Below are positions 14,250 through 64,000 of a stretch of 64,000 bases of DNA, piece after piece. This DNA is from an uncultured Gammaproteobacteria bacterium (GTDB taxonomy: Bacteria > Patescibacteriota > Patescibacteriia > UBA11705). The position numbers were made by a program, and so were the translations under genes. The DNA lies in the NCBI GenBank assembly GCA_964592195.1, contig CAZQEI010000002.1, positions 77,240 through 141,239 on the forward strand, read 5' to 3'. The notes beneath the pieces are model-generated. The model saw only the letters and a list, made by a program, of their open reading frames with translations. It was not told where the DNA came from and did not search any database. How positions within the stretch are numbered: the stretch's first letter is position 1; each line of letters opens with the position of its first letter.

Positions 14250-14326
14250 GGGCCTGTAGCTCAGTTGGTAAGAGCACCACTCTTATAAAGTGGGGGTCCT
14301 GGGTTCGATCCCCAGCAGGCCCACCA
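14250..14326 (+). tRNA. tRNA-Ile (anticodon UAU)
   Basis: gggcctgtagctcagttggtaagagcaccactcttataaagtgggggtcctgggttcgatccccagcaggcccacca; Ile-type acceptor stem gggcctg/caggccc; anticodon loop cuUAUaa; CCA encoded. Confidence 0.75.
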
Positions 14327-41463: not shown

Positions 41464-42264
41464 TTATTTATTAACAATGGTTTGTCGTTTATTTTTAATG
41501 TGATGATAAACAAACCAAGTGCCGGCGATCAACAATAGGACGGCAACGGTGATGGTGAAATATTCGGTATAATGACGAACCGTGGCCCAATTTTTTCCAA
41601 GGATCCAACCAAGGTAAGTTAAAAACGAATTCCACAGAGTTGCGCCAATTAAAGTATAAACAATAAATTTACTTAACTTCATTTTCCCCATACCAGCAGG
41701 CAAAGAAATCAAATGACGAACAATAGGGATGAAACGGCTTATAAAAATAGTTCGCTCCCCTCTTCGAGCAAACCAATGTTCAGTTTTTTGTAAATCTGTG
41801 GCATCCAACAAAAAGTATTTCCCAAATTTATTTACAAAGCGATGGCCGCCGTAATAACCAATATAATAGGAAAATAAGGAACCGATAATGCTTCCTATTG
41901 AGCTAAATAATATTACCAGCCAAACATTTAAGTTACCCTGAACAGCAAGAAATCCGGCGAAGGGCATGACTAATTCTGACGGCACAGGAAAGATCATGCT
42001 TTCCATTATCATTAACAATAAAACTCCTGGGTAACCAAGGTATTCAATAATGCTTGAGATTAATTGACCGGCGTGAGTAAGAGATTGGATAAGGAGGGAA
42101 AGCCAGTTGGGGGGTAAGAAATAAAAAAAGAAAACAAGAAAGCAAAAAAGCAAGGCAACACCTGTAAGAGGAACTGATTTTCGCGTAGGACGAGGCCAAA
42201 CGCGCCATGGACCACTAGGTCGTTGGCGAAAAAAAGAAATAAATGAGTTTAGATGTTTTTTCAT
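41464..42264 (-). CDS. DedA/SNARE-associated family membrane protein
   Basis: 266 aa; LLLMIMESMIFPVPSELVMPFAGF matches the DedA core motif. Confidence 0.6.
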   Translation of the reverse strand: MKKHLNSFISFFRQRPSGPWRVWPRPTRKSVPLTGVALLFCFLVFFFYFLPPNWLSLLIQSLTHAGQLISSIIEYLGYPGVLLLMIMESMIFPVPSELVMPFAGFLAVQGNLNVWLVILFSSIGSIIGSLFSYYIGYYGGHRFVNKFGKYFLLDATDLQKTEHWFARRGERTIFISRFIPIVRHLISLPAGMGKMKLSKFIVYTLIGATLWNSFLTYLGWILGKNWATVRHYTEYFTITVAVLLLIAGTWFVYHHIKNKRQTIVNK

Positions 42265-42330
42265 TTGATTAATATGTTTAAGTGACTAGTGAATAGTGAC
42301 TAGTGACCAGGAACTAGTACATGGAATTTA

Positions 42331-42834
42331 TTATTTAATTAAATCGGCAACGAAATATTTGGTTAGTAAATTCCAGGCGAAGTTGGAGTGGATGGCGGCA
42401 AAGACGGCGGAACTTTCTCCTCCGCAATAATCATAAATTTTTTGCTTTCCACCCGGATGGTTACCAATATAGGTTGTCACATTATAAACTTTGCTGTTTA
42501 CAATTAAATAACAATCATTGGGTGAATTGTGCGCTGAAACTTGCGCTGCAGTTAATCCCGCGGCTGGTGCTGGTGTATTTACGACTGGATTAGGTTTATT
42601 AACTGGAGTATTTACAACTGGCGCTGGTTTATTAGTTGGAGTATTAACTGCAGCGACTGGTTTATTGACCGGCGAGTTAACTGGCTTAGTTGGTTGATTG
42701 ACGACTGAATTATTCACTGGTGGATTATTAAGTGAGATTGACGTTGGATTCAAGTTAACGCCAAAACCCACACCGATCAAACCAGCAACAATGACTAAAA
42801 AGATAACTAACACGAGCCAAGTAATTTTTTTCAT
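42331..42834 (-). CDS. secreted or membrane-anchored cytochrome b5-like heme-binding protein with Pro-rich linker
   Basis: 167 aa; N-terminal TM/signal; PVNKP/NTP repeats; C-terminal YNVTTYIGNHPGGKQKIYDYCGGESSAVFAAIH matches the cyt b5 HPGG heme-binding motif. Confidence 0.5.
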   Translation of the reverse strand: MKKITWLVLVIFLVIVAGLIGVGFGVNLNPTSISLNNPPVNNSVVNQPTKPVNSPVNKPVAAVNTPTNKPAPVVNTPVNKPNPVVNTPAPAAGLTAAQVSAHNSPNDCYLIVNSKVYNVTTYIGNHPGGKQKIYDYCGGESSAVFAAIHSNFAWNLLTKYFVADLIK

Positions 42835-44690
42835 ATTAATTCTTGTTGTATAGCTACTAATTTATTATAATATTTTTTTATTCTATTATATTTCTCAAAA
42901 ATATTCCCTGTTTCCGTACTTATAGGATCATCAGATCTGATAAGGTCATTTCTACCATTTAATGCCAATTCATATTTAAGACCAAGAGCTTTTCCATACA
43001 AATCATCATACTGCTCATTTACTCTGGCGGCCTTAACGCACACTTTTTTTATTATCTCCAATCGTTTATCTATCGGTAAAGTATAAAAATCCTCATGACG
43101 ACAATAAACTTTTAATAATTTAGTAAAGTCATCTTCAGTTATTTTATGCCCAAGAGAAAGGTGTAAATAACCATCCTGCATTTCTTGCATTTGCTGTATG
43201 GTTGACACCCAATTTCTTAATTGAGCAGATATCTCTGAAAAATTGTCCGAGAAATCCAATGGTAAAATTAGGTTTTTAATTATAATCGGAGAAAATCTTC
43301 GATTAACTACTTCTTGAATTTTAGCAAAAACCTCTTTGTCTATTTCTATCGGCAAGATTTTTATTTTTTCTCTATCCTCCACTCTCGACGCATGAACAAA
43401 AGATTGATTATCTTCAAAGCCCAATTGAACTAACCCATCAAAAATCGCCTGCAATTCATCCAATATCACAATAATCGGTTCCATTCTCAAATAATTACTA
43501 CTTAAACTTCTTTCTAAATATGCTTCAAGCTCCACAACCTGAAAGGGCGATACATAATCCTCCGCTTTTTGATGTACTATTTCCGGGTTTCTAATTAATG
43601 ACAACAAAACAGATACCGGAATTACTTTTGTATTCTTAAATAACCACCACCACTCAAAATCTTCAGAAAAAATCCGGTTTTCATCAAACTCTTCTTTCGA
43701 TGTATCAATTAACTTTAATCGGTCAGATAAATCAGCCAAATTTTCACTCACAGAAATAATCGGCCACAAGGTTTTGGCAGGAACATCAAAATATTTCAGT
43801 CTCAATAGCTCATTCATCACTTGTCGCCAGTCAGGACTATAATGCTCCCGAAAAATTTTATCTGGATCAAACATTTTATCGCTAAAAATCCCTCCCGGAT
43901 TAAGGCAATATTCCCCATGCTTGGCATATGCCGCTAACTCATCCAAGGCTCTCCAGTCGCGCATTTTCCGACCAACCACATAACGTGAGTAAAACAAATG
44001 TTGAAGTTCATGATCAACCACGTCTTGACCAACGCCAGCTTTAATAAACCCAAGCTTCCGATTAAAAACAAATAATCGCTTATCCCAACCTTCGTGCATT
44101 ACCATTACAGGTGTTTTATGTGCCAAACCTACAGTAGTTGAATTGGCAATTTCATCATACGGAGATAAAGTTTGATAATCTTCATCTCGCAAACATTCCA
44201 CAATTACAAAAGGTGGTCGATCAGCATGAAAAATATAATCCTTGGGGTCTTTGCTAATTACCGGCAAAAATCTTAAAAAACTCTTTTGCAAAATATCGTC
44301 GTCTTTTAATAATTTCCACGGCTCCGGCGATTGATCAACCACATAATCTCCAGTAGCTGAAGCGCGCATAAATTCTTCACTGGATGTATACAAAACTCTA
44401 ATGGCTTCAATTTCATCACCAACATCTGAGATCCAATCATTCACTCCCGCCTCTATCCAACTCTTTTGCATCTCACTCGCCTTGGCTCCCAATTTTCGAG
44501 CCTCAGTTAAAATTCTTGCAACTATTTCCGGCTGTCCCAAATTAGGATTTTCCCATAAAACTTTTTCCGCCACTTCCAAAAGCACCTCCATAGTTTGGCG
44601 ATGATATTCTTTTTTTATTTCCGGTTGACTCTTTTCCCTAGCAATCTGAGCCGGATCTTTTTCTTTAATTAATGGTCGTAACTCAAACAT
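42831..44690 (-). CDS. HExxH-motif protein (putative gluzincin-like metallopeptidase), paralog 2
   Basis: 619 aa; VDHELQHLFYSRY...DELAAYA; collinear similarity to 44697..46589 throughout; 4-nt overlap with the downstream gene. Confidence 0.5.
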   Translation of the reverse strand: MFELRPLIKEKDPAQIAREKSQPEIKKEYHRQTMEVLLEVAEKVLWENPNLGQPEIVARILTEARKLGAKASEMQKSWIEAGVNDWISDVGDEIEAIRVLYTSSEEFMRASATGDYVVDQSPEPWKLLKDDDILQKSFLRFLPVISKDPKDYIFHADRPPFVIVECLRDEDYQTLSPYDEIANSTTVGLAHKTPVMVMHEGWDKRLFVFNRKLGFIKAGVGQDVVDHELQHLFYSRYVVGRKMRDWRALDELAAYAKHGEYCLNPGGIFSDKMFDPDKIFREHYSPDWRQVMNELLRLKYFDVPAKTLWPIISVSENLADLSDRLKLIDTSKEEFDENRIFSEDFEWWWLFKNTKVIPVSVLLSLIRNPEIVHQKAEDYVSPFQVVELEAYLERSLSSNYLRMEPIIVILDELQAIFDGLVQLGFEDNQSFVHASRVEDREKIKILPIEIDKEVFAKIQEVVNRRFSPIIIKNLILPLDFSDNFSEISAQLRNWVSTIQQMQEMQDGYLHLSLGHKITEDDFTKLLKVYCRHEDFYTLPIDKRLEIIKKVCVKAARVNEQYDDLYGKALGLKYELALNGRNDLIRSDDPISTETGNIFEKYNRIKKYYNKLVAIQQELI

Positions 44691-44696
44691 ATTAAA

Positions 44697-46589
44697 TCAT
44701 TCTTTTGCATTTACAAGTGCCTCTTTCATTTTATCGCGAAGAGCCACGAGCATTTCAATACTCTTATAAATATTTATATTTAAATACTTTGAAAGCTGTA
44801 AATCACCCTGATCCCAAGGTTTCCCCAAAGATACCAGCTCAGATTGCACCGTACCAAGTTCGCTCAATAAATCCTTTCGCTCATCCATCATTTTCAAAGT
44901 TTTTTCAGTAAGCTCTTTTACAATGGAAGCCCTTTTCTCTAATGTCAAATTTACGAAATCATCACCGCCGCAATATGTTTTCAACAAAGCATTAAGATAC
45001 TCAAGCTCAATATCTTGATTGTCACGTAACCAAGTGAATTTATTTTCCATACTGTCTATCGCCTTCAATTGCGATTCCAAGGATCGCAAGAAAAGAACCA
45101 CAGAATGGAAATCTCCGGAAAAATTTTTCTCTATGTCTAACGATCCCAAAGCACCACAACTAAAATTTTGATTTACCATTTTTTGCAATTTTTCAATAAT
45201 ATCAGGATAAATATTAATAAAAAAACCACCAGTCTTAGCTTTTAAACTCAAATCATTTTCATCTTTATATCCAAGTTCCGTCAAACCCTGAAAAACACCC
45301 TGTAAATCGCTAAGCATCAAGATAATAGGATCTAAATAACGATTGGCACTCTTTAAACATTTCTCCAAGTACGGATTTAATTCATTGGATTGGAAGTAAG
45401 TCATAGCGGCTGAGGCGGCAAAACCCAAACTAGCTGGTGTCGCTTTTTTCTTCACATCCGGTGAAAGCTCGGCATGATGTTTAAAAAACCAAGGCCAATC
45501 AATATCCCCTTTTTTTATCCGACTAGAATCAAAATTATCTGGATCAACCTTTACTTTCTGTAAACGAAATTTTAAATCCGCCAAATTTAAGCTGGTTGAA
45601 ATTATTGGCCAAAGAGACTTCGCTGGGACTTCATGATATTGCAATCGCAACAATTCATCTCGAACCTCTCTCCAATATTCATCATATCGATGCTTAAATA
45701 TCGCCTCGTCATCAAGACGGACATTACTAAAAACGCTATCTGGTTTTATACAATACTCACCCCCTTTAGCATACGCCGCTAATTCATCAATAGCACGAAC
45801 ATGAAAATATTTACGAGGTGCAACATATCGATTATAAAAAAGATGTTGCAATTCGTGATCACGCACCGATCTATCAACCCCACCCCGAATAACACCAATT
45901 TTACCAACAAAGGCTTCCAATCTAGGATCCAAGGGTTGATCCATATTAACAGGACGCAATTTTTGAGAATTGATAAACGCTAAACCATTGCTACTATGAC
46001 GACTTGAGGCAGATTCATCATAGGGAGACAACGCTTGATAATCTTTTATATTAAAGCATTCAATAATAATAAAAGGTGGACGATTCACATGAAAACGAAA
46101 ATCCCGACGATTACTACTTTCCACAGGTAATAAGGCCAATAAACTTTCTTTTAAATCTCGATCATCTTCTAATAACTTCCAAGGCGAATCATTATTATCT
46201 AGCGCTTTAACTCTAGAAGGACGAGAACTATTCTCATATAAAGCACGGATGGCATCAATCTCTTTCCCTATATCTAAAGTCCATTCATCCACCGATTCTT
46301 CCACCCACCGACGTTGAGTCTCACTAGCGTGAGCGCCAAATTCCCTAGCAGAGGATAAAATTTTATCCACTAATTCTGGACGACCAAGATTGGGGTTTTT
46401 CCACAATACTTTTTCAGCTTCACGCAAAATAATTTCCATTGCCTGAATATGGTATTCTCGTTTAATGCCTATGTCATTCTTTTGTCTAGCCACCAGCTCT
46501 GCGCTTTTATTTGGTTGTATTAATGGGTGTAAGGTTTCAAACATATTAAAAATTAAATTCTTCTGAATGAATATTCTTGCGATTGACAC
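44697..46589 (-). CDS. HExxH-motif protein (putative gluzincin-like metallopeptidase), paralog 1
   Basis: 630 aa; RDHELQHLFYNRY...DELAAYA; shared blocks EAEKVLW.NPNLG.PE, RPPF[VI]I[VI]EC, YAK.GEYC. Confidence 0.5.
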   Translation of the reverse strand: MSIARIFIQKNLIFNMFETLHPLIQPNKSAELVARQKNDIGIKREYHIQAMEIILREAEKVLWKNPNLGRPELVDKILSSAREFGAHASETQRRWVEESVDEWTLDIGKEIDAIRALYENSSRPSRVKALDNNDSPWKLLEDDRDLKESLLALLPVESSNRRDFRFHVNRPPFIIIECFNIKDYQALSPYDESASSRHSSNGLAFINSQKLRPVNMDQPLDPRLEAFVGKIGVIRGGVDRSVRDHELQHLFYNRYVAPRKYFHVRAIDELAAYAKGGEYCIKPDSVFSNVRLDDEAIFKHRYDEYWREVRDELLRLQYHEVPAKSLWPIISTSLNLADLKFRLQKVKVDPDNFDSSRIKKGDIDWPWFFKHHAELSPDVKKKATPASLGFAASAAMTYFQSNELNPYLEKCLKSANRYLDPIILMLSDLQGVFQGLTELGYKDENDLSLKAKTGGFFINIYPDIIEKLQKMVNQNFSCGALGSLDIEKNFSGDFHSVVLFLRSLESQLKAIDSMENKFTWLRDNQDIELEYLNALLKTYCGGDDFVNLTLEKRASIVKELTEKTLKMMDERKDLLSELGTVQSELVSLGKPWDQGDLQLSKYLNINIYKSIEMLVALRDKMKEALVNAKE

Positions 46590-47826
46590 CGAGAGTAATT
46601 AATTCCTTGGTCAAGCTGGTAATCATTCTCGGCGGGGCACAGATATAAATTTGTTTTTTGATAATCGGTTCAGAAATTTTTGCAATCACTTCCGCTTCTA
46701 AACGACAATTTTGGTCAGAGTAGAAAGTCATCATCCGAACTCCCGGAGCAAAGGACTCCAACAATTCCCGATAAACTAATTGGGTTTTATTTTTGGCGCT
46801 ATAATACAAATCAATATCACCGGCTTTGGGTTTCAAAGCTTTGAGACGACTAACAAAGGGAGTAATTCCAATACCGCCAGCTATCCAAATTTGATTATGA
46901 ACATCATCATTATTTGGAAAAAATTGACCAAATTGACCGTCAACCGTCACCATTGAACCGATTAATTCATTATCAATTTTACCAGTATAATCTCCCAAGT
47001 TTTTTATTGTTAATGTTAAAAACTTTTCATTGGGACTGGAAGAAATAGAAAAGGGATGACTTTCACGACTGATTTTTTTATTTTTAATTTTAATAAACAC
47101 ATATTGACCGGCTTGAAAATTCATAGCATCTCCTACGGGTAACATTTTCACCTCAACAATATTATCAACCAACTTCACCACTTCATCAATCTTGTAAATA
47201 AATTTCTTTCTAAATGGATTATTTAACAATGTGTGATAAATAAATAATATTAAAGCTACAAAAATAATAGTTAAAATGTAAACACGCAGGGGCCAGAAAC
47301 GAGAAACATCGCTGGCAATTAACCAAATATGCAAACCAGCCAAGAAGAATGCCAAACCCATAAACTTGTGCGTCCATTTCCACCAATGGTAACGAGGTTT
47401 CAAATACAAGGTTAAAACAATTAAAATGATCAATAAGGTTAGAGCGAAGATGCCCCAATTAATTGACCAGACATCACCCGGCAATAAAAAGCCAGCCACG
47501 GCGGAGAGAACATTCCCGGTGTATTTTGGGATTAATAATAACGGATGGCACAATAAAAGAATGAAACCGACTTGACCTAGATTGTTATGTTGTGCGTAAA
47601 CACGATTTAAACCGGCGTAAAGTTTATCAAATATTTTTAATCGCGCGCTTAAAATCAAACTTAACGCAAATAAAACTGTACCGACCAAACCGCAGATTTG
47701 TCCGAAGTTGGCCAGAGTGGTAGTTAAATTACTAAAGCGAGCAACCGGAGCTGGGGCAAAGAACCACAAAATAACTGGAATAATTAACAATATAAGTATG
47801 GTAAGGTTAATTTTATTTTTGTTCAT
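46546..47826 (-). CDS. NOX/ferric-reductase-family flavocytochrome (bis-heme TM domain + FAD/NAD(P)-binding domain)
   Basis: 426 aa; His pairs AQH...CHP and WTH...GLH 13-14 residues apart in TM helices; HPFSISS FAD motif; GGIGITP NAD(P)H motif; C-terminal CAPPRM; overlaps the next gene by 44 nt. Confidence 0.6.
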   Translation of the reverse strand: MNKNKINLTILILLIIPVILWFFAPAPVARFSNLTTTLANFGQICGLVGTVLFALSLILSARLKIFDKLYAGLNRVYAQHNNLGQVGFILLLCHPLLLIPKYTGNVLSAVAGFLLPGDVWSINWGIFALTLLIILIVLTLYLKPRYHWWKWTHKFMGLAFFLAGLHIWLIASDVSRFWPLRVYILTIIFVALILFIYHTLLNNPFRKKFIYKIDEVVKLVDNIVEVKMLPVGDAMNFQAGQYVFIKIKNKKISRESHPFSISSSPNEKFLTLTIKNLGDYTGKIDNELIGSMVTVDGQFGQFFPNNDDVHNQIWIAGGIGITPFVSRLKALKPKAGDIDLYYSAKNKTQLVYRELLESFAPGVRMMTFYSDQNCRLEAEVIAKISEPIIKKQIYICAPPRMITSLTKELITLGVNRKNIHSEEFNF

Positions 47827-47846
47827 AATTGAAAAAGGTAAGCTTT

Positions 47847-47893
47847 AGAGATTGCTTCGTCACCCCGCTAAGCGTGGTTCCTCGCAAATGAGG
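47847..47893 (+). repeat. GAGATTGC-hairpin-CTCGCAAATGAG element, copy D (divergent)
   Basis: agagattgcttcgtcaccccgctaagcgtggttcctcgcaaatgagg; 20 nt upstream of the NOX-like gene start. Confidence 0.7.
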
Positions 47894-48006
47894 GAATGTT
47901 ATCCTATTAATATACAATTTACTGATGATGAATATTTCCCCGGGATCAAATTCAGGGTATTGACAGCATCGCTGTCAACTACGGGATGGGTGGGGTGGGA
48001 AATATG

Positions 48007-49311: not shown

Positions 49312-51360
49312 ATGGAATTTAAGCTAAAATCTGATTACAAACCAGCTGGGGATCAACCAAAAGCGATTGATCAACTGATTTTTGGTTTGGGAAAGAAGCA
49401 ACGGCATCAAACTTTGTTGGGCGTCACCGGTTCAGGCAAGACGTTTACAATTGCAAATGTAATTAACAAAGTGCAAGAACCAACGCTAGTCATTGCCCAC
49501 AATAAAACGCTGGCTGCTCAGTTATGTAATGAATTTCGTGAATTCTTCCCAGAAAATGCGGTCGAATATTTTGTTAGTTACTATGACTATTATCAACCCG
49601 AAGCTTATATTCCTTCTTCCGATACTTACATTGAAAAAGAATCACAAATTAACGAAGAGATTGATCGACTGCGCCATGCCTGCACACAGTCTTTACTTTC
49701 ACGAAAAGATGTAATTGTTGTAGCGTCAGTTTCCGCGATTTACAATCTTGGTTCACCTCGGGAATATGAAAGCGTACTATTACACTTTGAGCAAAATCAA
49801 AAAATCGATCGGCGCGAAATGTTAGAAAAATTGGTAGCCATGCAATTCAATCGAACGAACAGTGACTTGTTACGTGGCACTTTTCGATTAACCGGCCAAA
49901 TATTGGAAGTGATGCCAGTAAATGAAGAAACCATTTTCCGATTTGAAATTGCAGAAAAAATTGTTAGTATTGAAAAAATCGATCCAGTTAGTCGCAATGT
50001 CATTACCACTGTTCACGATGTCTGGTTATTCCCAGCTAAACATTATGTTTTAAATCCCGACGTACGTGATCGTGCGTTTGAAAAAATCAAAGGAGAATTG
50101 GATGAGCGTTTAGTAGAATTCAACAAAGAAGGTAAATTGCTGGAAGCTGAAAGATTAAGCCGCAGAACACGATATGATTTGGAGATGATTAAAAATGTAG
50201 GCTTTTGCAGTGGCATTGAAAACTATTCTTTATATTTTGAAGAACGAGAACGCGGCACTCCCCCATTTACATTATTAGATTACTTCAAAGAGTGTTCTCC
50301 GGATTTTTTAACTGTGGTCGATGAATCGCACGTGACATTACCGCAAATTCGCGGCATGTATTTTGGTGACCGCTCAAGAAAAGATACTTTAGTGGAACAT
50401 GGTTTTCGTTTACCGAGCGCCAAAGATAATCGACCGTTAACCTTTGACGAATTCCACGAACGAGTTAACCAAATGATTTTTGTTTCTGCCACACCAGCTG
50501 ATTTAGAATACAAAATTTCCGATCAAATCGTAGAACAAATCGTTCGTCCAACTGGATTAATTGACCCAGAAGTAATTATTAAACCAGTAACAGCAGATCA
50601 AAATAGTCCATCCCAAATTGATGATTTAATGGATCGCATTCATGATCGTGTTGAGAAAAATGAACGTTGTCTGGTTACAACATTAACTAAAAAGATGGCC
50701 GAGGATTTAACTGATTATTTAAAAAAGAAAAACATCAAAGTCAGTTATTTGCATAGCGACATTGATACGCTGGAAAGAATTCAAATCATCACCGATCTTC
50801 GTAAAGGAGAAATCGAAGTCATCGTCGGGGTTAATTTACTGCGTGAAGGTTTAGACATGCCTGAAGTTTCGTTAGTGGCTATTCTCGACGGTGACAAAGA
50901 AGGTTTCTTGAGAAATGATACTAGCTTGATTCAAACCATCGGACGCGCGGCGCGTAATGCGAACGGACAAGTATTAATTTACGCTGATAGAATTACTGAT
51001 TCAATCAAACGTGCACTAGAAGAAACCAATCGTCGTAGAATTATTCAATTACAATATAATAAAGATCACGGGATAACGCCGAAGACGATTGAGAAAGCGA
51101 TTAAGAATATTCTTGAGGAATTTGGGCTGACTGCTGGGAAGAATAAAGAAAGAAAGCAAGAAAACAAGAAAACAAATAACGCATTGAAAATTGAATTAGA
51201 AGTGGACAAGAGACCGGTGGCGGAAATTATTAAAGAAAAAGAAAAGCAGATGAAAGAGGCGGCGAAGGCGTTGGAGTTTGAGTTGGCGGCACTGTTGAGG
51301 GATGAGTTGCGGGAGTTGAAGAATAAGAAAGCAAGTCCCGCAAAACGGGATCCCGCCTAG
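49312..51360 (+). CDS. uvrB: excinuclease ABC subunit B
   Basis: 682 aa; GVTGSGKT Walker A, helicase motifs, beta-hairpin, C-terminal UVR domain; the last 9 codons lie within a repeat element. Confidence 0.95.
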   Translation: MEFKLKSDYKPAGDQPKAIDQLIFGLGKKQRHQTLLGVTGSGKTFTIANVINKVQEPTLVIAHNKTLAAQLCNEFREFFPENAVEYFVSYYDYYQPEAYIPSSDTYIEKESQINEEIDRLRHACTQSLLSRKDVIVVASVSAIYNLGSPREYESVLLHFEQNQKIDRREMLEKLVAMQFNRTNSDLLRGTFRLTGQILEVMPVNEETIFRFEIAEKIVSIEKIDPVSRNVITTVHDVWLFPAKHYVLNPDVRDRAFEKIKGELDERLVEFNKEGKLLEAERLSRRTRYDLEMIKNVGFCSGIENYSLYFEERERGTPPFTLLDYFKECSPDFLTVVDESHVTLPQIRGMYFGDRSRKDTLVEHGFRLPSAKDNRPLTFDEFHERVNQMIFVSATPADLEYKISDQIVEQIVRPTGLIDPEVIIKPVTADQNSPSQIDDLMDRIHDRVEKNERCLVTTLTKKMAEDLTDYLKKKNIKVSYLHSDIDTLERIQIITDLRKGEIEVIVGVNLLREGLDMPEVSLVAILDGDKEGFLRNDTSLIQTIGRAARNANGQVLIYADRITDSIKRALEETNRRRIIQLQYNKDHGITPKTIEKAIKNILEEFGLTAGKNKERKQENKKTNNALKIELEVDKRPVAEIIKEKEKQMKEAAKALEFELAALLRDELRELKNKKASPAKRDPA

Positions 51361-59908: not shown

Positions 59909-60039
59909 TCTGTTCTCCTTAGGGTTGTAGTTGAATTACTGATCTACGGATTACTACGGATACTACAGATAAGACATCAAATAAATGAACTAATACGAAT
60001 ATATTAGATTATTATAGCGAGATAAGCAAGTTCCGCAGA

Positions 60040-60062
60040 GACGGGATCCCGCCTAGCGGGAA
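60040..60062. repeat. TCCCGC-cta-GCGGGA hairpin element (copy 3, truncated)
   Basis: gacgggatcccgcctagcgggaa. Confidence 0.7.
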
Positions 60063-60114
60063 AAGCGAGATCAGCGAGATAAGTATTGAATATTATTAAA
60101 ATAAAAAATTATTA

Positions 60115-60143
60115 TCAAAAAAGTCCCCAGCGATATGGGGACA
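60115..60143 (-). terminator. rho-independent terminator (gtcccc-N8-ggggac with T-run on the minus strand)
   Basis: aaaaaagtccccagcgatatggggac; the same hairpin recurs at 61145..61172 and 63001..63025. Confidence 0.7.
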
Positions 60144-60172
60144 GTCTTTCATTTTTAATAAGTCGTATTCAA

Positions 60173-60976
60173 CTAGTTATCTTCACGTTTCTCCAAACCC
60201 TGGATCCTGCCTGTAGGTCGGAAACCACCGCGAAGATCTTCAGACGGTCCTAGATGGTAGCATTTAGGTTCATCTTCACACTCTTCGTTGAGTTCATTCC
60301 AAATCATCTTACCGCGACAGCGACACTCCGCTTTCTTGGTGTCCCAAGTAGCACCTGGGCAACGAGGTTCACACAATTCCCGAGATGTCGACCACTTGGT
60401 AGACGGATCTTTGCAACGAGATTCACACATCAATGATTTCCCGTTAAAAATCTCACTTTGCAAACACTTCGCCGGCCTCGAATAGTCAGCCTTCTTCAAG
60501 TCGATCAGTTCCTGAACAGACAAACAAAGCTTGTATTCAGAGGAAAAGACCTTTCCCTGTTCGCACTCGCAAGAATTGGTCGTCTCTACATATTGCTGCG
60601 CTGCCGGACAAATCTCGTGGCACTTATCATGTTGCCAAGTAAAACCTGCTTTACAAACAGAAACGCAAGATTTGGTTCCCGAATCCCACTTCTTACCTTC
60701 AGTAGAATGGCACAGAGGAATACAAAGATTTACATTATCCTGCATCATATCTGGCCTAAATCCCTCACGACATGTCGGCCGACATTGACCGCTGGAACCG
60801 TGATAAGAATCATTATAAGCATAGTATGTCTGACCTTCAGGACACTTTCTGAGAGATGCACGATAGTCTGAATTCATCTTATTCAGCTCATCCACCACGG
60901 ATCTATCATAGTAATAACCACCAGCGCACTGGCTCATGACCATGAGAGAGACGATCAGGACAAGGTGACGTAGCAT
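60173..60976 (-). CDS. secreted Cys-rich protein (EGF/furin-like Cys repeats), GC-rich gene
   Basis: 267 aa; signal peptide MLRHLVLIVSLMVMSQCAG; more than 30 Cys in C-x-x-G-x-x-[WY]-like repeats; AAGGAGG RBS; local GC about 50%. Confidence 0.55.
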   Translation of the reverse strand: MLRHLVLIVSLMVMSQCAGGYYYDRSVVDELNKMNSDYRASLRKCPEGQTYYAYNDSYHGSSGQCRPTCREGFRPDMMQDNVNLCIPLCHSTEGKKWDSGTKSCVSVCKAGFTWQHDKCHEICPAAQQYVETTNSCECEQGKVFSSEYKLCLSVQELIDLKKADYSRPAKCLQSEIFNGKSLMCESRCKDPSTKWSTSRELCEPRCPGATWDTKKAECRCRGKMIWNELNEECEDEPKCYHLGPSEDLRGGFRPTGRIQGLEKREDN

Positions 60977-61079
60977 GGGGACCTCCTTGGCCGTCAGGCC
61001 GTCAGTTGGGGATGTGCCGAGCCTGAGAAACGGAAAACATCACTAAAACACGTTAAATTTTCAAGTTACAAGACACATA

Positions 61080-61108
61080 ATTATAGCACATACTTATAAT
61101 AAAGTCAA
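61080..61108 (-). promoter_or_regulatory. consensus sigma-70 promoter TTGACT-17-TGTGCTATAAT
   Basis: Minus strand reads ttgact-ttattataagtatgtgc-tataat; lies within a ~100-nt cassette repeated at 62888..62990. Confidence 0.7.
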
Positions 61109-61144
61109 TCATTTTGTATAATATTTTGCTTATTTTAAATGTAA

Positions 61145-61172
61145 ACAAAAAAGTCCCCAGCGATATGGGGAC
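61145..61172 (-). terminator. rho-independent terminator (same hairpin family)
   Basis: aaaaaagtccccagcgatatggggac downstream of 61221..62285. Confidence 0.7.
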
Positions 61173-61220
61173 TCCCTTTCAAGGTAGTTAAACAATTAAG
61201 AACAGGATCAGAACGACAAG

Positions 61221-62285
61221 CTACTTCGGGACACAGGTGTCGGTAGCGTCGTCGTACTTGCCGTTCGGGCAGGGCGGTTCTTCATGAGAGCACAGCTCGT
61301 AGACCGCGATGCCCTGGTCCTCTTCGACCTGGCAGAGGAACTCGCGGATACAGCTGGTCGAAAACCGAGCAACACGACACATCGCGAGTCCACCATCTTC
61401 CGTCAGATTGAAAGAGATACTACGGTACCCCTCCCAAACCGGGAAATCCCACCTAGTGACGAAATCCGTCTGGTTGTCGTAGGTCAGCTTCAGCTTCTTC
61501 CCTCCGAGGAACGCCCACACGGTGCGACCGTTCACGACCACGAACTTGTAGGCGCTGAGGCCGTTCATGTTCGGCCAAGCCTCATAGGACGGGCTGGCCG
61601 CGTTCGCGAACGCCGTGACCGTCGGGTGGGAGGTGTCGAGCCTCCTGAGGTTCTTGATGTACCGGAAGCCCTCGACGTCCTCGTCGCAGACCTTGTAGAT
61701 CTGGACGGAGTTGTCCCACATGCGGCTGACGGCGCACAAATCGGTGTTCATCGCGCCGAACGAACCGTGGAACCGGCCCTTGAAGTTCTTCTGGTACGAG
61801 AACTTCAGGTTGTGCTCATCGATTACCTCGGGGTTGGACTCCTTGAGGGAAGGATCAACGGAGTTGTAGGACGCGGTCCAGATGACCACGTCGGACAAGC
61901 CCTTGAACACCGGCAAGTAGGCCCTGCCGCCCTCTTGTTCATCATCGTAGAACCTGGCCTTGACCCCCTTGCTGGGGAGGTAGACCCAGAGCTCTTCGCC
62001 GTTCACGAGGACGAACTGGTAGTCGGCGATGTCGAGCGACTCGGTCCAGACCTTGTAGTAGACTTCCTTCGCGATCAGGAAGTCACCGACCTTGGGGTAC
62101 TTCTGGTACCGGCAGTCGTCGAGGCCGGGCCACGAGTCGGTGTCGCCGCAGAAGCCGTCATGGTCCGGATCGGACTGGCCTTCCTGGCAGATGCCGAGCA
62201 TGCACAGACCGGCGGTGGCGACGGACGGGAACGAGAGCGCCACGAGCGCGAGCACCAGAGCCGAGAACAGGGAGCGACGCAGCAT
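61221..62285 (-). CDS. secreted protein with internal duplicated module, high-GC gene
   Basis: Start set at MLRRSLFSALVLALVALSFPSVATA (signal peptide), preceded by ggccAAGGAGGtcccc identical to the RBS context of 60173..60976; two copies of an IYKVCDEDVEGFRY / AVYELC module; GC about 60%. Confidence 0.55.
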   Translation of the reverse strand: MLRRSLFSALVLALVALSFPSVATAGLCMLGICQEGQSDPDHDGFCGDTDSWPGLDDCRYQKYPKVGDFLIAKEVYYKVWTESLDIADYQFVLVNGEELWVYLPSKGVKARFYDDEQEGGRAYLPVFKGLSDVVIWTASYNSVDPSLKESNPEVIDEHNLKFSYQKNFKGRFHGSFGAMNTDLCAVSRMWDNSVQIYKVCDEDVEGFRYIKNLRRLDTSHPTVTAFANAASPSYEAWPNMNGLSAYKFVVVNGRTVWAFLGGKKLKLTYDNQTDFVTRWDFPVWEGYRSISFNLTEDGGLAMCRVARFSTSCIREFLCQVEEDQGIAVYELCSHEEPPCPNGKYDDATDTCVPK

Positions 62286-62361
62286 GGGGACCTCCTTGGC
62301 CACAAAGGCCGTGTGTGGGGACACCAGCAACCACTAAATTGATTACTGGAATAATTCACAC

Positions 62362-62829
62362 TTAGAATTCCTGACACACAAAGCAACCTCGATCCTCATT
62401 CTTTGTTTTATACATGCGACAACCAAGACGAGGTGTATTCAATAATCGATAGCTTTCATCCGCAATCTGCTGATGCCAGGGTTTACGAAAATGTTCATTC
62501 ACGTCGTAAACATATTGTTCTTGTTCTTTCGAACTGCAAACAACAGAAAACTGCTTACCAGATATATTTCTCCATTTGGTAAAAGCCCCATTTGCATGAC
62601 TGACTCCATATTCTTCAACTGCGGCATAAAAAATATTATAATCACGATCATCCTCAAGGGTGCCCCAACAATCAGCTACCAAGTCAGCCAGGGCTTCTGA
62701 CATAACATGATCACGCTGGATATCCAGAGCATCATATTCCGATGGGGAATTACAGGCCTGATTGCTATTTTCCAGTGGAGCAGAACAACCCAGAAGAAGA
62801 ACGAACAGCACCAACCATGACAATCGCAT
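62362..62829 (-). CDS. putative lipoprotein
   Basis: Start at MRLSWLVLFVLLLGCSAP (lipobox LLGC) with AAGGAGG RBS; 155 aa; directly upstream of 61221..62285. Confidence 0.45.
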   Translation of the reverse strand: MRLSWLVLFVLLLGCSAPLENSNQACNSPSEYDALDIQRDHVMSEALADLVADCWGTLEDDRDYNIFYAAVEEYGVSHANGAFTKWRNISGKQFSVVCSSKEQEQYVYDVNEHFRKPWHQQIADESYRLLNTPRLGCRMYKTKNEDRGCFVCQEF

Positions 62830-62931
62830 GTTGACCTCCTTAGCCTGATGGCTAGAGTTGAGTAGGTTTAGGATCCTAGAGAACAAAAATGTCACTAAAA
62901 CACGTTAAATTTTCAAGTTACAAGACACATA

Positions 62932-62960
62932 ATTATAGCACATACTTATAATAAAGTCAA
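62932..62960 (-). promoter_or_regulatory. consensus sigma-70 promoter TTGACT-17-TGTGCTATAAT (second copy)
   Basis: Identical to the promoter at 61080..61108. Confidence 0.7.
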
Positions 62961-63000
62961 TCACTCCGTACTAAATTTTGCTTATTTTAAACAATAATTT

Positions 63001-63025
63001 AAAAAGTCCCCAGAGATACGGGGAC
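63001..63025 (-). terminator. rho-independent terminator (gtcccca-gagatac-ggggac)
   Basis: Third copy of the hairpin terminator, downstream of 63074..63681. Confidence 0.65.
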
Positions 63026-63073
63026 TTCCTTTCAATGTAGTTTATCAATTACGAACAGGAGAGGGACGGCGAG

Positions 63074-63681
63074 CTACTTCGTCTCGGGGGGAGGAAGCGG
63101 CTCGTCGTAGCACTCGACCGGCAGGGACGCGTAGTACTCGAAGACCTTGAGATCCTCCTGGCAGACCTCGTAGATCTCGACACCTTCGCGACTGGCGACC
63201 GAACACATCTGGAGGTTGGTCTGCCCGATCTCCGATCGACCGCAGTTGTGGGTCTTGCGGTAGGTCATGAGGACCTTGCCAGGCTCGGGGTTGAACTCGA
63301 TGGTATTGACCCCGACGAAGACCGGGAGCACGAAGATCGTCTCGTCTGCCCGCCTCTGGTCGACCGGGATCACGAACGACATGAGGCCCACGTTGAACCA
63401 CATGCGCTCGCCGCCGTCGGTGACGACGAGGTTGAGCTCGCCGAGTCGCCGGTTGATCTCGTCGTTGCCCTTGGGCCACTCGCCCTTGGCGGAGATCTGG
63501 AACAGGCACACGATGTCACCGGCCTCACAAGCCGGGGGGAGAGAGATCTCTCCTTTCGGCCCGATGATGGCCAGCCCCCCACACTTGGCGGCGGGGGTGA
63601 AGGCCACCCACACCGTCACGAACAGTGCCGCGAGCATCGCACCCAGGGTCAGAGCCTTTTCCTTGCGCGAATAGATCTTCA
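63074..63681 (-). CDS. secreted or membrane-anchored protein, paralog of the C-terminal module of 61221..62285, high-GC gene
   Basis: Start at MKIYSRKEK with cgAAGGAGGattgg RBS; N-terminal TM/signal LTLGAMLAALFVTVWVAF; C-terminal IYEVCQEDLKVFEY matches IYKVCDEDVEGFRY; GC about 60%. Confidence 0.5.
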
Positions 63682-63834
63682 TCCAATCCTCCTTCGTCCA
63701 GCGACCAAACGCCAGACATTGCGCACCATCTCGAACCAGAACCAGCACTGCCTGAGAACCAGAGCGCGATGCGATCCCAGCCGAAGCCGGGAGTTATGGA
63801 TTTATTGACGTAAAAGATCAATTACTAACCGTTC

Positions 63835-63863
63835 ATTATAGCATGTTTTATAATAAATGTCAA
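63835..63863 (-). promoter_or_regulatory. sigma-70 promoter TTGACA-17-TGCTATAAT (third copy, diverged cassette)
   Basis: Minus strand reads ttgaca-tttattataaaacatgc-tataat. Confidence 0.6.
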
Positions 63864-63920
63864 TGGGTAAAAATGGCAAAATGGCTTATTTTAGATAAAA
63901 ACAAAATATTATACTCACTC

Positions 63921-63958
63921 AGAGATTGCCGCGCCCCGATGCGGGGCTCGCAAAATAG
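63921..63958 (+). repeat. GAGATTGCCGCG-hairpin-CTCGCAAAA element, copy G
   Basis: agagattgccgcg-ccccgatgcgggg-ctcgcaaaatagg; stem switched to ccccg/cgggg. Confidence 0.85.
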
Positions 63959-64000
63959 GTAGCATTTTTCAGCCGACTGCCAACCTTCGCTGAAGCTTCG

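Follow-up and report, generated by a model that had tools for sequence, protein, structure and literature searches.

A patescibacterial NOX-cytochrome b5 gene pair split by two orphan HExxH genes

SpNOX of Streptococcus pneumoniae (PDB 8qq7, 8qta and 8qt6; PMC11031084, PMC11564096, PMC5676040) has the same architecture and length as the NOX-like protein described here. Both proteins have six transmembrane segments, two bis-His hemes and an FAD/NAD(P)H dehydrogenase domain, and neither has regulatory domains. In a 2024 structural study (PMC11564096), the physiological acceptor of SpNOX is treated as disputed. The outer heme is described as highly exposed and cytochrome c as reduced directly; it is concluded there that bacterial NOX homologs may have a physiological acceptor other than O2, and 'a potential protein acceptor' is proposed. 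The same study draws an analogy between SpNOX and MsrQ-MsrP. MsrQ is an FRD-type di-heme membrane protein whose exposed outer heme delivers electrons to an extracytoplasmic partner encoded next to it, the logic suggested here for NOX and b5. However, MsrQ has no dehydrogenase domain such as that of the present NOX and receives its electrons from quinol or Fre; the partner that it reduces is a molybdoenzyme in place of a b5.

The colocalization of pFre (PF01794) and cytochrome b5 (PF00173) genes in CPR was reported in a 2021 preprint (bioRxiv 10.1101/2021.11.17.468889), and the NOX-b5 pairing in CPR is thus already known. In these operons the two domains are encoded within 10 kb, and all products are membrane-associated. 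The ancestral state proposed in the preprint contains a two-component system and additional b5-like genes (cytb5MY, CBLA/CBLB). The present locus is of the same kind, but differs in several respects. The preprint focuses on the Tyr-ligated cytb5MY, whereas the b5 here is of the classical bis-His HPGG type; no kinase, response regulator or second b5 was found among the Pfam-scanned neighbors; and, unlike in the CPR operons, two unrelated genes lie between NOX and b5. This last feature, the known pair divided by two orphan HExxH genes, was not found at any of the other NOX loci sampled.

Cytochrome b558 of Ectothiorhodospira vacuolata (1cxy) is a further relevant protein, an extracytoplasmic bacterial b5. 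It is soluble, and no physiological partner of it is known. Both axial His residues and the surrounding motifs of 1cxy align with the b5 of this locus. The latter differs in having an N-terminal anchor and a Pro-rich linker, and a candidate donor gene is adjacent in its relatives.

The locus lies on the minus strand of the window, by which we mean the whole stretch of 64,000 nucleotides analysed. Its features are as follows.

47827..48006, minus strand: upstream intergenic region of 180 nt, likely the promoter region of the unit.
46546..47826, minus strand: SpNOX-type NOX/ferric-reductase flavocytochrome of 426 aa.
44697..46544, minus strand: HExxH paralog A, 615 aa, probable start ATG at 46544 and not GTG at 46589.
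45843..45857: HExxH of paralog A (H230, E231, H234), with the third-ligand candidate E254 at 45783..45785.
42831..44690, minus strand: HExxH paralog B, 619 aa.
43998..44012: HExxH of paralog B (H227, E228, H231), with D250-E251 at 43938..43943.
42331..42834, minus strand: probable membrane-anchored cytochrome b5 (PF00173), 167 aa, with an N-terminal hydrophobic anchor at about residues 1-31, a Pro/Asn/Val-rich linker and the b5 domain at residues 95-165.
42457..42459 and 42388..42390: codons of the candidate heme ligands H126 and H149 of b5.
41464..42264, minus strand: DedA/VTT-family membrane protein, 66 nt downstream of b5 and outside the conserved pair.

The four open reading frames of the original prediction (46546..47826, 44697..46589, 42831..44690 and 42331..42834) are all present. 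Of the junctions given there, the 6-nt gap and the 4-nt overlap stand, the former between paralogs A and B (TGA-TTTAAT-ATG) and the latter between paralog B and b5 (ATGA). The 44-nt overlap of NOX with paralog A does not, as it depends on the GTG start of the longest open reading frame (630 aa). The alignment of the paralogs and a 615-aa product in public collections place the start of paralog A at ATG 46544, so that the junction reads TAA-T-ATG with a gap of 1 nt. A distance of 3.7 kb separates the NOX and b5 genes, which share a strand. Genes of this genome are often closely packed; among 34 same-strand junctions in the 18-49 kb part of the window, eight are 10 nt or shorter. Despite this common tight spacing, three such junctions in succession argue for co-transcription.

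The DedA gene after b5 was also correctly called, with a VTT_dom match in Pfam (1.2e-25); the protein is UptA-like, below the NCBIfam cut-off. At three other NOX-b5 loci the genes downstream of b5 vary. The other window neighbors recognized by Pfam are ASCH, a nucleotidyltransferase and an M50-like protein, besides hypotheticals.

A perfect inverted repeat of 8 bp, TTGACAGC-GAT-GCTGTCAA, lies at 47960..47978 in the upstream intergenic region. A scan for promoters and terminators gave no enrichment over shuffles. A riboswitch in the leader was considered and rejected, as no Rfam match was found and the fold was not significant (z = -1.65).

The first gene encodes, to judge from its sequence, an SpNOX-type protein with a six-transmembrane, two-b-heme ferric reductase domain and a cytosolic FAD/NAD(P)H dehydrogenase domain. 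The former scores 35.7 bits with PF01794 (Ferric_reduct; cut-off 28), and the latter matches PF08022 (FAD_binding_8) with 48.6 bits and PF00175 (NAD_binding_1) with 34.1 bits. Six hydrophobic segments appear in the hydropathy profile. The protein aligns with SpNOX (8qq7/8qta) over its full length (phmmer, residues 44-409, E 1.1e-33), although the overall sequence similarity is low. Four His residues, H80, H94, H153 and H166, do not vary among 24 NOX homologs, and the pairs H80/H94 and H153/H166 align with His-bearing positions of SpNOX, whose heme ligands are given as H69/H83/H129/H142 in PMC11564096. HPFS and GGIGITPF are likewise aligned with SpNOX, and HPFS, GGIGITP and CAPPRM are conserved in the family. 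The hallmarks of the NOX/FRE family named in the original prediction are therefore borne out. More than 500 NOX homologs were found, mostly in Patescibacteria, with the closest in Buchananbacteria, Komeilibacteria, Paceibacteria and Gracilibacteria.

The fourth gene encodes a cytochrome b5 with a predicted N-terminal anchor, and its external location would follow from this topology. The domain (residues 95-165) matches PF00173 with 68.2 bits against a cut-off of 23.7 (E 6.4e-19). It has 52 b5-family matches in the PDB, the best being 1cxy (3e-12). The original prediction named an HPGG heme motif in this protein and was to be refuted if the heme-ligating His pair were lacking; both His are present, as H126 and H149, and in the alignment they fall on the ligand positions of 1cxy and of flavocytochrome b2. 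Both are retained in 12 of 12 aligned b5 domains encoded next to other NOX genes. The hydropathy profile contains one N-terminal hydrophobic segment, which follows Lys-Lys, and all the partner b5 proteins begin with a charged and then a hydrophobic N-terminus. This segment could alternatively be a cleaved signal peptide.

Patescibacteria are in general not known to synthesize heme, which counts against the heme loading assumed for NOX and b5.

The genomic context of NOX was sampled at about 85 loci. At 18 distinct loci other than the present one, only 3-146 nt (3-38 nt at 15 of them) separate the end of NOX from the start of b5, with nothing between. Where the NOX is at least 40% identical to ours, b5 directly follows it in nine of ten informative loci. 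A dedicated, translationally coupled b5 gene partner is thus present in most close orthologs, a difference from SpNOX, as is the source, a Patescibacterium; a term search of two SpNOX papers found no mention of such a partner. The preprint reported the pair only in CPR (10.1101/2021.11.17.468889), whereas here it also occurs in five loci of 61-70% G+C. No b5 neighbor was found at two proteobacterial NOX loci. The predicted path from NAD(P)H through NOX to an extracellular b5 gains support from this conserved NOX-then-b5 coupling. The electron transfer itself would rest on gene order and on the analogy with the reduction of cytochrome c by SpNOX.

The two HExxH proteins share 41% identity over 588 aa. 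They are mutually closest (50% identity in the core versus at most 39% to other members) and their starts have the common context TTTAATATGTTTGA, which together point to a duplication. Neither contains a transmembrane or other hydrophobic segment or a signal peptide by hydropathy. They belong, on the evidence of their sequences, to an orphan family that is very rare: 1.84 billion proteins contain just 15 representatives of it. A word-indexed homolog search, run with paralog B and with a 13-sequence profile, recovered no protein beyond the two of the window. Significant E values were not reached with any Pfam, NCBIfam, PHROG or PADLOC family; one family member reaches only E 0.044 with Peptidase_M78. 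No match was found by PDB sequence search with the family profile or the core profile, and Foldseek against the PDB gave no significant zincin match.

H227, E228, H231, D250 and E251 (numbering of paralog B) are invariant in 13 sequences of 17-41% identity, and HExxH-x19-E is invariant in the family. In an AF2 model, H227, E228, H231 and E251 lie on helices 222-237 and 246-257, after a small sheet. The placement of HExxH on one helix and of a candidate third-ligand Glu on the next is the trait of gluzincins, which were compared as thermolysin-like HExxH plus Glu enzymes, the M30 lugdulysin 7bb8, M49 DPP III, M9, M1 and M34. By sequence, the HExxH proteins match none of the described peptidase families. 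The original prediction had seen in them a paralogous, cytoplasmic-looking pair with a gluzincin-like HExxH...E signature and with no recognised family, a description that these results support.

HExxH homologs elsewhere typically have 16S rRNA before them and trmD after them, an order seen in several lineages, or lie next to other housekeeping genes. For six homologs with informative contexts, no NOX or b5 neighbor was present. Conversely, an HExxH homolog is absent from 85 of 85 NOX loci examined. In GCA_040961635.1 the NOX-b5 pair and an HExxH gene are on different contigs. TrmD, KH and S16 genes, sought as a trace of the ancestral HExxH context, are absent from the window. Thus the gene order is not conserved. 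The placing of the HExxH pair in the same module as NOX and b5 fails on this point, and the recurrence of all four genes in relatives was not found, the recurring unit being NOX with b5; as a conserved module the four-gene set is refuted.

Tandem HExxH pairs are found in two lineages, the present one and L020. It was also considered whether a downstream gene might supply the C-terminal domain missing from distant family members. This idea was rejected; the gene downstream in L020 is a second full member of the family, and that in L018 is unrelated.

We consider it rather probable that two unrelated things share one transcription unit here, an electron-export pair of NOX and b5 and an insertion of HExxH genes. 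The NOX-like protein would take electrons from cytosolic NAD(P)H via FAD, and pass them to the inner and then the outer b heme. From there they would reach the heme of the b5 domain, tethered outside the membrane by its N-terminal anchor and flexible Pro-rich linker. From b5 the electrons may go on to O2, Fe(III), another protein or some other acceptor outside the cell. For a Patescibacterium that does not respire, the benefit could be NAD(P)+ regeneration or O2 consumption. In this lineage alone, a tandemly duplicated gene of an apparently Patescibacteria-specific family would have come to sit between NOX and b5. Its ancestral site was presumably that between the 16S rRNA gene and trmD, probably with no conserved tie to redox genes. 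The products would be soluble proteins of about 620 aa, each with a conserved N-terminal core predicted to be a gluzincin-like metal hydrolase, followed by a long helical C-terminal domain. In the site predicted for paralog B, H227, H231 and E251 would be metal ligands and E228 the general base.

The hydrolase part of this proposal has a competitor, in which the HExxH proteins are helical scaffold or structural proteins and not enzymes, with HExxH...E structural or metal-independent. The long helices that make up more than half of the AF2 model, and the lack of a significant zincin match by Foldseek or sequence, are in line with it. We regard this alternative as unlikely.

It is very improbable that the four genes act as one module, in which the HExxH proteins would be accessory metalloenzymes of NOX-b5 for maturation, heme or iron handling, or regulation. 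Spacings of 1 nt, 6 nt and -4 nt imply that the genes are co-transcribed and translationally coupled, and the insertion was retained with neither flanking gene disrupted, both as this reading expects. Against it stand the 18 loci with an uninterrupted pair, the 85 NOX loci without an HExxH homolog, the housekeeping neighbors of the homologs and the unlinked genes of GCA_040961635.1, together with the close packing common in the genome. Through their translational coupling with NOX and b5, the HExxH genes may be co-expressed with them and so may have been functionally recruited to some extent in this lineage, which tells against the two-part explanation that we prefer.

An arrival of the pair by horizontal transfer, carried by a mobile element or phage, or as a secreted effector or toxin against a host cell, would suit an extremely rare and patchy family with tandem pairs in two lineages and the interruption of an otherwise conserved two-gene unit, but has little to recommend it, since relatives are absent from IMG/VR viral contigs, phage records and plasmids, PHROGs and PADLOC are negative, the chromosomal synteny of 16S rRNA, HExxH and trmD is kept in several lineages, the G+C content resembles that of the surroundings, no integrase or transposase is among the Pfam-matched flanking genes, and the proteins have no signal peptide or transmembrane segment. 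On the negative results with PHROGs, PADLOC, viral contigs, phage records and plasmids, a phage, plasmid or defence origin was rejected.

An extended reading, which we hold to be improbable, has two parts. In the first, the tethered b5 is the long-sought physiological protein acceptor of SpNOX-type bacterial enzymes, which would then be classed as NAD(P)H:cytochrome-b5 transmembrane reductases and not as oxidases; the NOX-b5 pairing would extend past CPR to high-G+C bacteria with a b558-like (1cxy-type) b5. In the second, the HExxH proteins are a new zinc-hydrolase family, limited to a few Patescibacteria lineages and recruited here into the NOX-b5 operon for a redox-linked role, for example in heme-protein turnover or maturation. 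As a caution, a common function should not be concluded from close operon packing alone where genomes are streamlined.

The HExxH family may be a new zincin family with no described relatives and an invariant metal-site signature. The b5 coupled to NOX in 18 loci names a concrete candidate for the protein acceptor of bacterial NOX. To our knowledge Patescibacteria have no respiratory chains, and the NOX-b5 pair is one of few candidate routes for electron exit in these organisms.

The genes for a NOX-like flavocytochrome and a cytochrome b5 are the outer members of a four-gene unit on the minus strand, and two paralogous HExxH genes lie between them. All four open reading frames of the original prediction were found as described, with a single correction at the first junction; its interpretation is supported in part.

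46546..47826, minus strand: NOX-like gene (Ferric_reduct, FAD_binding_8 and NAD_binding_1 matches)
44697..46544, minus strand: HExxH paralog A, 615 residues
42831..44690, minus strand: HExxH paralog B, 619 residues
42331..42834, minus strand: b5 gene (Cyt-b5, 68 bits against a cut-off of 23.7)

The longest open reading frame of paralog A encodes 630 residues from GTG 46589, from which a 44-nt overlap with the NOX-like gene had been predicted. However, the alignment of paralogs A and B opens at MFETL/MFELR, the product of paralog A in public collections (P0002) has 615 residues, and the junction with the NOX-like gene reads ...TTT TAA T ATG TTT GAA. Because of these three observations the start is placed at ATG 46544. 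Therefore 1 nt separates the NOX-like gene from paralog A, and there is no overlap. The other two junctions were predicted correctly, with a 6-nt spacer between A and B (TGA TTTAAT ATG) and a 4-nt overlap of the paralog B stop with the b5 start codon (ATGA). The context TTTAATATGTTTGA is common to both HExxH start codons, which fits a tandem duplication taking in a few bases before the start.

Close packing is common in this genome, since 8 of the 34 same-strand junctions at 18–49 kb of the window are 10 nt or shorter. Despite this, three consecutive tight junctions indicate, as far as gene spacing can tell, one transcription unit. It is limited by a 180-nt spacer upstream and a 66-nt spacer ahead of the DedA gene. 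The upstream spacer contains an inverted repeat.

47960-47978: perfect 8-bp inverted repeat, TTGACAGC-GAT-GCTGTCAA, in the 180-nt spacer that precedes the NOX-like gene

The repeat could act as an operator, or it could be the hairpin that terminates the upstream ASCH gene; no T-run accompanies it, and the upstream region neither matched Rfam nor gave a significant fold as a whole. The spacer between the b5 and DedA genes (42265-42330) has three ACTAGT palindromes and CACTAGTCACT repeated twice, which may be a regulator binding site.

The unit belongs to a long series of some 35 consecutive minus-strand genes (18249-49075) and lies just upstream of a putative ribosomal-protein block, with uvrB divergent at 49312. 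That block of ribosomal-protein and translation-factor genes appears to occupy about 20–37 kb, judged only from the sizes and order of the open reading frames. At 14250-14326 is a tRNA-Ile gene with anticodon UAU, an uncommon bacterial means of reading AUA; two tRNA-Val genes are nearby. The G+C content is about 50% at 60000-64000 and about 37% in the rest of the window. Four open reading frames in this block have no Pfam match.

60173..60976, minus strand: open reading frame
61221..62330, minus strand: open reading frame
62362..62895, minus strand: open reading frame
63074..63748, minus strand: open reading frame

At least 60173..60976 is Cys-rich, several have a hydrophobic, signal-peptide-like N-terminus, and 61221..62330 and 63074..63748 look paralogous, with a common Y[KE]VC[DQ]ED..F.Y motif. 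Such a block may be a foreign island, or else an assembly chimera formed where the contig ends.

The NOX-like protein aligns over residues 44–409 with the structures 8qq7, 8qta and 8qt6 of SpNOX, the Streptococcus pneumoniae NADPH oxidase (E 1e-33), and has six hydrophobic segments. H80, H94, H153 and H166 are invariant among 24 homologs and align with His-bearing positions of SpNOX, whose heme ligands are given as H69/H83/H129/H142 in PMC11564096. On every sequence-level count the protein belongs to the SpNOX-type bacterial NOX/FRD (ferric-reductase domain) family. Homologs are abundant in Patescibacteria, with more than 500 matches and a top non-self identity of 52%.

Among solved structures the b5 protein comes closest to a bacterial protein, Ectothiorhodospira vacuolata cytochrome b558 (1cxy, E 3e-12), and its two axial histidines, H126 of HPGG and H149 of IHS, align with that structure. 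A single N-terminal hydrophobic segment after Lys-Lys is followed by a Pro/Asn/Val-rich linker. By its sequence the gene 4 product is a classical bis-His cytochrome b5.

A survey of the pairing of these two genes took in 85 loci with a NOX gene, drawn from genomes and metagenomes. In 18 distinct loci the b5 gene begins 3–146 nt after the NOX gene (3–38 nt in 15 of them), and these 18 include 9 of the 10 informative loci whose NOX shares 40% identity or more with that of the window. All partner b5 proteins in the 18 loci show, in sequence, a charged-then-hydrophobic N-terminal anchor, and both b5 histidines are kept in 12 of 12 aligned partner domains. With the b5 gene directly after NOX in so many loci, we infer, as originally proposed, electron export by the NOX-b5 pair. 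The b5-type partner differs between loci, as two arrangements illustrate: in locus L008 (1190-8017), where FMN_red and cupredoxin genes are neighbours, NOX has both a 646-residue Cyt-b5/Big_7 protein encoded upstream and an anchored b5 encoded downstream, whereas in L029 (2349-3240) NOX is followed by one 297-residue protein with two tandem b5 domains.

Colocalisation of the two genes in CPR bacteria is already known, because it was described for pFre/PF01794 and cytochrome b5 genes in a preprint (bioRxiv 10.1101/2021.11.17.468889). PF01794 was found there in 1427 of 7645 CPR genomes, and in 185 of the 1427 a PF00173 gene was no more than 10 kb away; the authors suggested a membrane complex and saw no such pairing outside CPR. 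A text-term look-up in FRD-superfamily and SpNOX papers met no b5 partner. Five metagenomic loci of 61–70% G+C (L060, L067, L068, L086 and L094), probably not CPR, extend the pairing past what the preprint reported. Each has a full NOX-like gene and, 3–38 nt later, a gene for an anchored Cyt-b5 protein of 120–135 residues. A b558-like HP[TAS]xP motif, as in 1cxy, is present in four of the five b5 proteins, and L086 has HPGD. These loci also suggest that Ectothiorhodospira b558 may have a NOX-type donor.

The HExxH proteins had been placed in the same module as NOX and b5. This does not hold: no HExxH homolog occurs in the 85 NOX-bearing loci, and the homologs lie in unrelated places. Nor is the four-gene set a conserved module, the b5 gene following NOX directly in the 18 loci. 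The usual context, in several Patescibacteria lineages (L011-L016, L101, L009), is a divergent 16S rRNA gene, a long-subfamily HExxH gene and a convergent trmD, beside KH-domain, S16, PRPP synthase and polA genes. Three family members, P0123, P0125 and P0124 (by annotation a Candidatus Falkowbacteria hypothetical protein), occupy this position between divergent 16S rRNA and convergent trmD genes, adjoined by KH/S16 ribosome-biogenesis genes and polA. P0130 is flanked by a radical-SAM tRNA-modification gene and thrS, and P0134 comes after a PDZ protein. In GCA_040961635.1 the NOX-b5 genes (L008) and the HExxH genes (L020) are on separate contigs. The HExxH gene of L101 (1670-3615), also facing a 16S rRNA gene, is split into three consecutive open reading frames (87, 203 and 344 residues); either the gene is a pseudogene or the breaks come from frameshift errors, the metagenome contig being of low coverage. 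Co-transcription of the HExxH genes with NOX and b5 in the window is real, yet best read as genome compaction, not shared function.

The cores of A and B are 50% identical, and neither exceeds 39% with any other member; they are mutual nearest relatives. Most simply, a single family member would have entered the space between NOX and b5 in this lineage and duplicated there; duplication first, followed by transposition of the pair, is equally possible. Nothing points to a mobile element: the pair shows no compositional anomaly, and searches gave no viral, phage or plasmid relatives. Tandem paralogs are present both in the window and in a second lineage, at L020 (8001-11510; 661 and 444 residues, with a 51-residue coiled-coil gene between), which hints at a heteromeric function. 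The 51-residue protein matches the C-terminus of the product of a 99-codon gene just upstream of P0130 (L018 7696-7995; 37% over 43 residues, E 1e-5) and may be a small partner of a distant HExxH subfamily.

Paralogs A and B are 41% identical across 588 residues, have no hydrophobic segment by hydropathy, and find no sequence match in Pfam, NCBIfam, PHROGs, PADLOC or PDB. Among 5.8 billion proteins, a word-indexed search found these two and no others. Exhaustive HMMER with a two-sequence profile against 1.84 billion cluster representatives returned 15 proteins, 13 of them new, three of which are fragments of one gene. Invariant in the 13-sequence alignment (17–41% identity; paralog B numbering) are P124, L139, H227, E228, H231, D250, E251 and A254, essentially the HExxH and DE(L/F/M)xAY motifs, with the Glu 20 residues past the second His. 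The AlphaFold2 model from this alignment is confident (pLDDT 84.6, pTM 0.81). It runs from an N-terminal helical segment through four short strands (152–217), a helix with HExxH (222–237) and a helix with DE (246–257) to a long helical C-terminal half, an order that in the model is the gluzincin arrangement. Foldseek of the model against PDB gave no match, and the fold comparison is only weakly supportive of a gluzincin-like reading. A gluzincin-like metal hydrolase is thus the most likely mechanism, at or slightly short of an even chance, and membership in that group is a prediction. The proteins would then be cytoplasmic zinc-dependent hydrolases with ligands H227, H231 and E251 and base E228, and the helical C-terminal half would serve oligomerisation or substrate selection.

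What is new here is a NOX-b5 pair interrupted by two genes, a rare HExxH family with its usual 16S-trmD context, and NOX-then-b5 pairs at high G+C with b5 proteins resembling the Ectothiorhodospira b558 type. By homology with SpNOX, electrons in the pair would leave cytosolic NAD(P)H and travel by way of FAD and two hemes until they reach the outer face, where the tethered b5 heme domain would take the electron and hand it on. Such a path fits published observations on SpNOX. According to PMC11564096, its outer heme is unusually exposed, it reduces cytochrome c directly and at a higher rate than O2 or Fe(III), its physiological acceptor may not be O2, and the analogy of MsrQ-MsrP is given for "a potential protein acceptor" that it may have. 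For a fermentative organism that lacks a respiratory chain, the NOX-b5 pair could be a means to regenerate NAD(P)+, to scavenge O2 or to reduce Fe(III).
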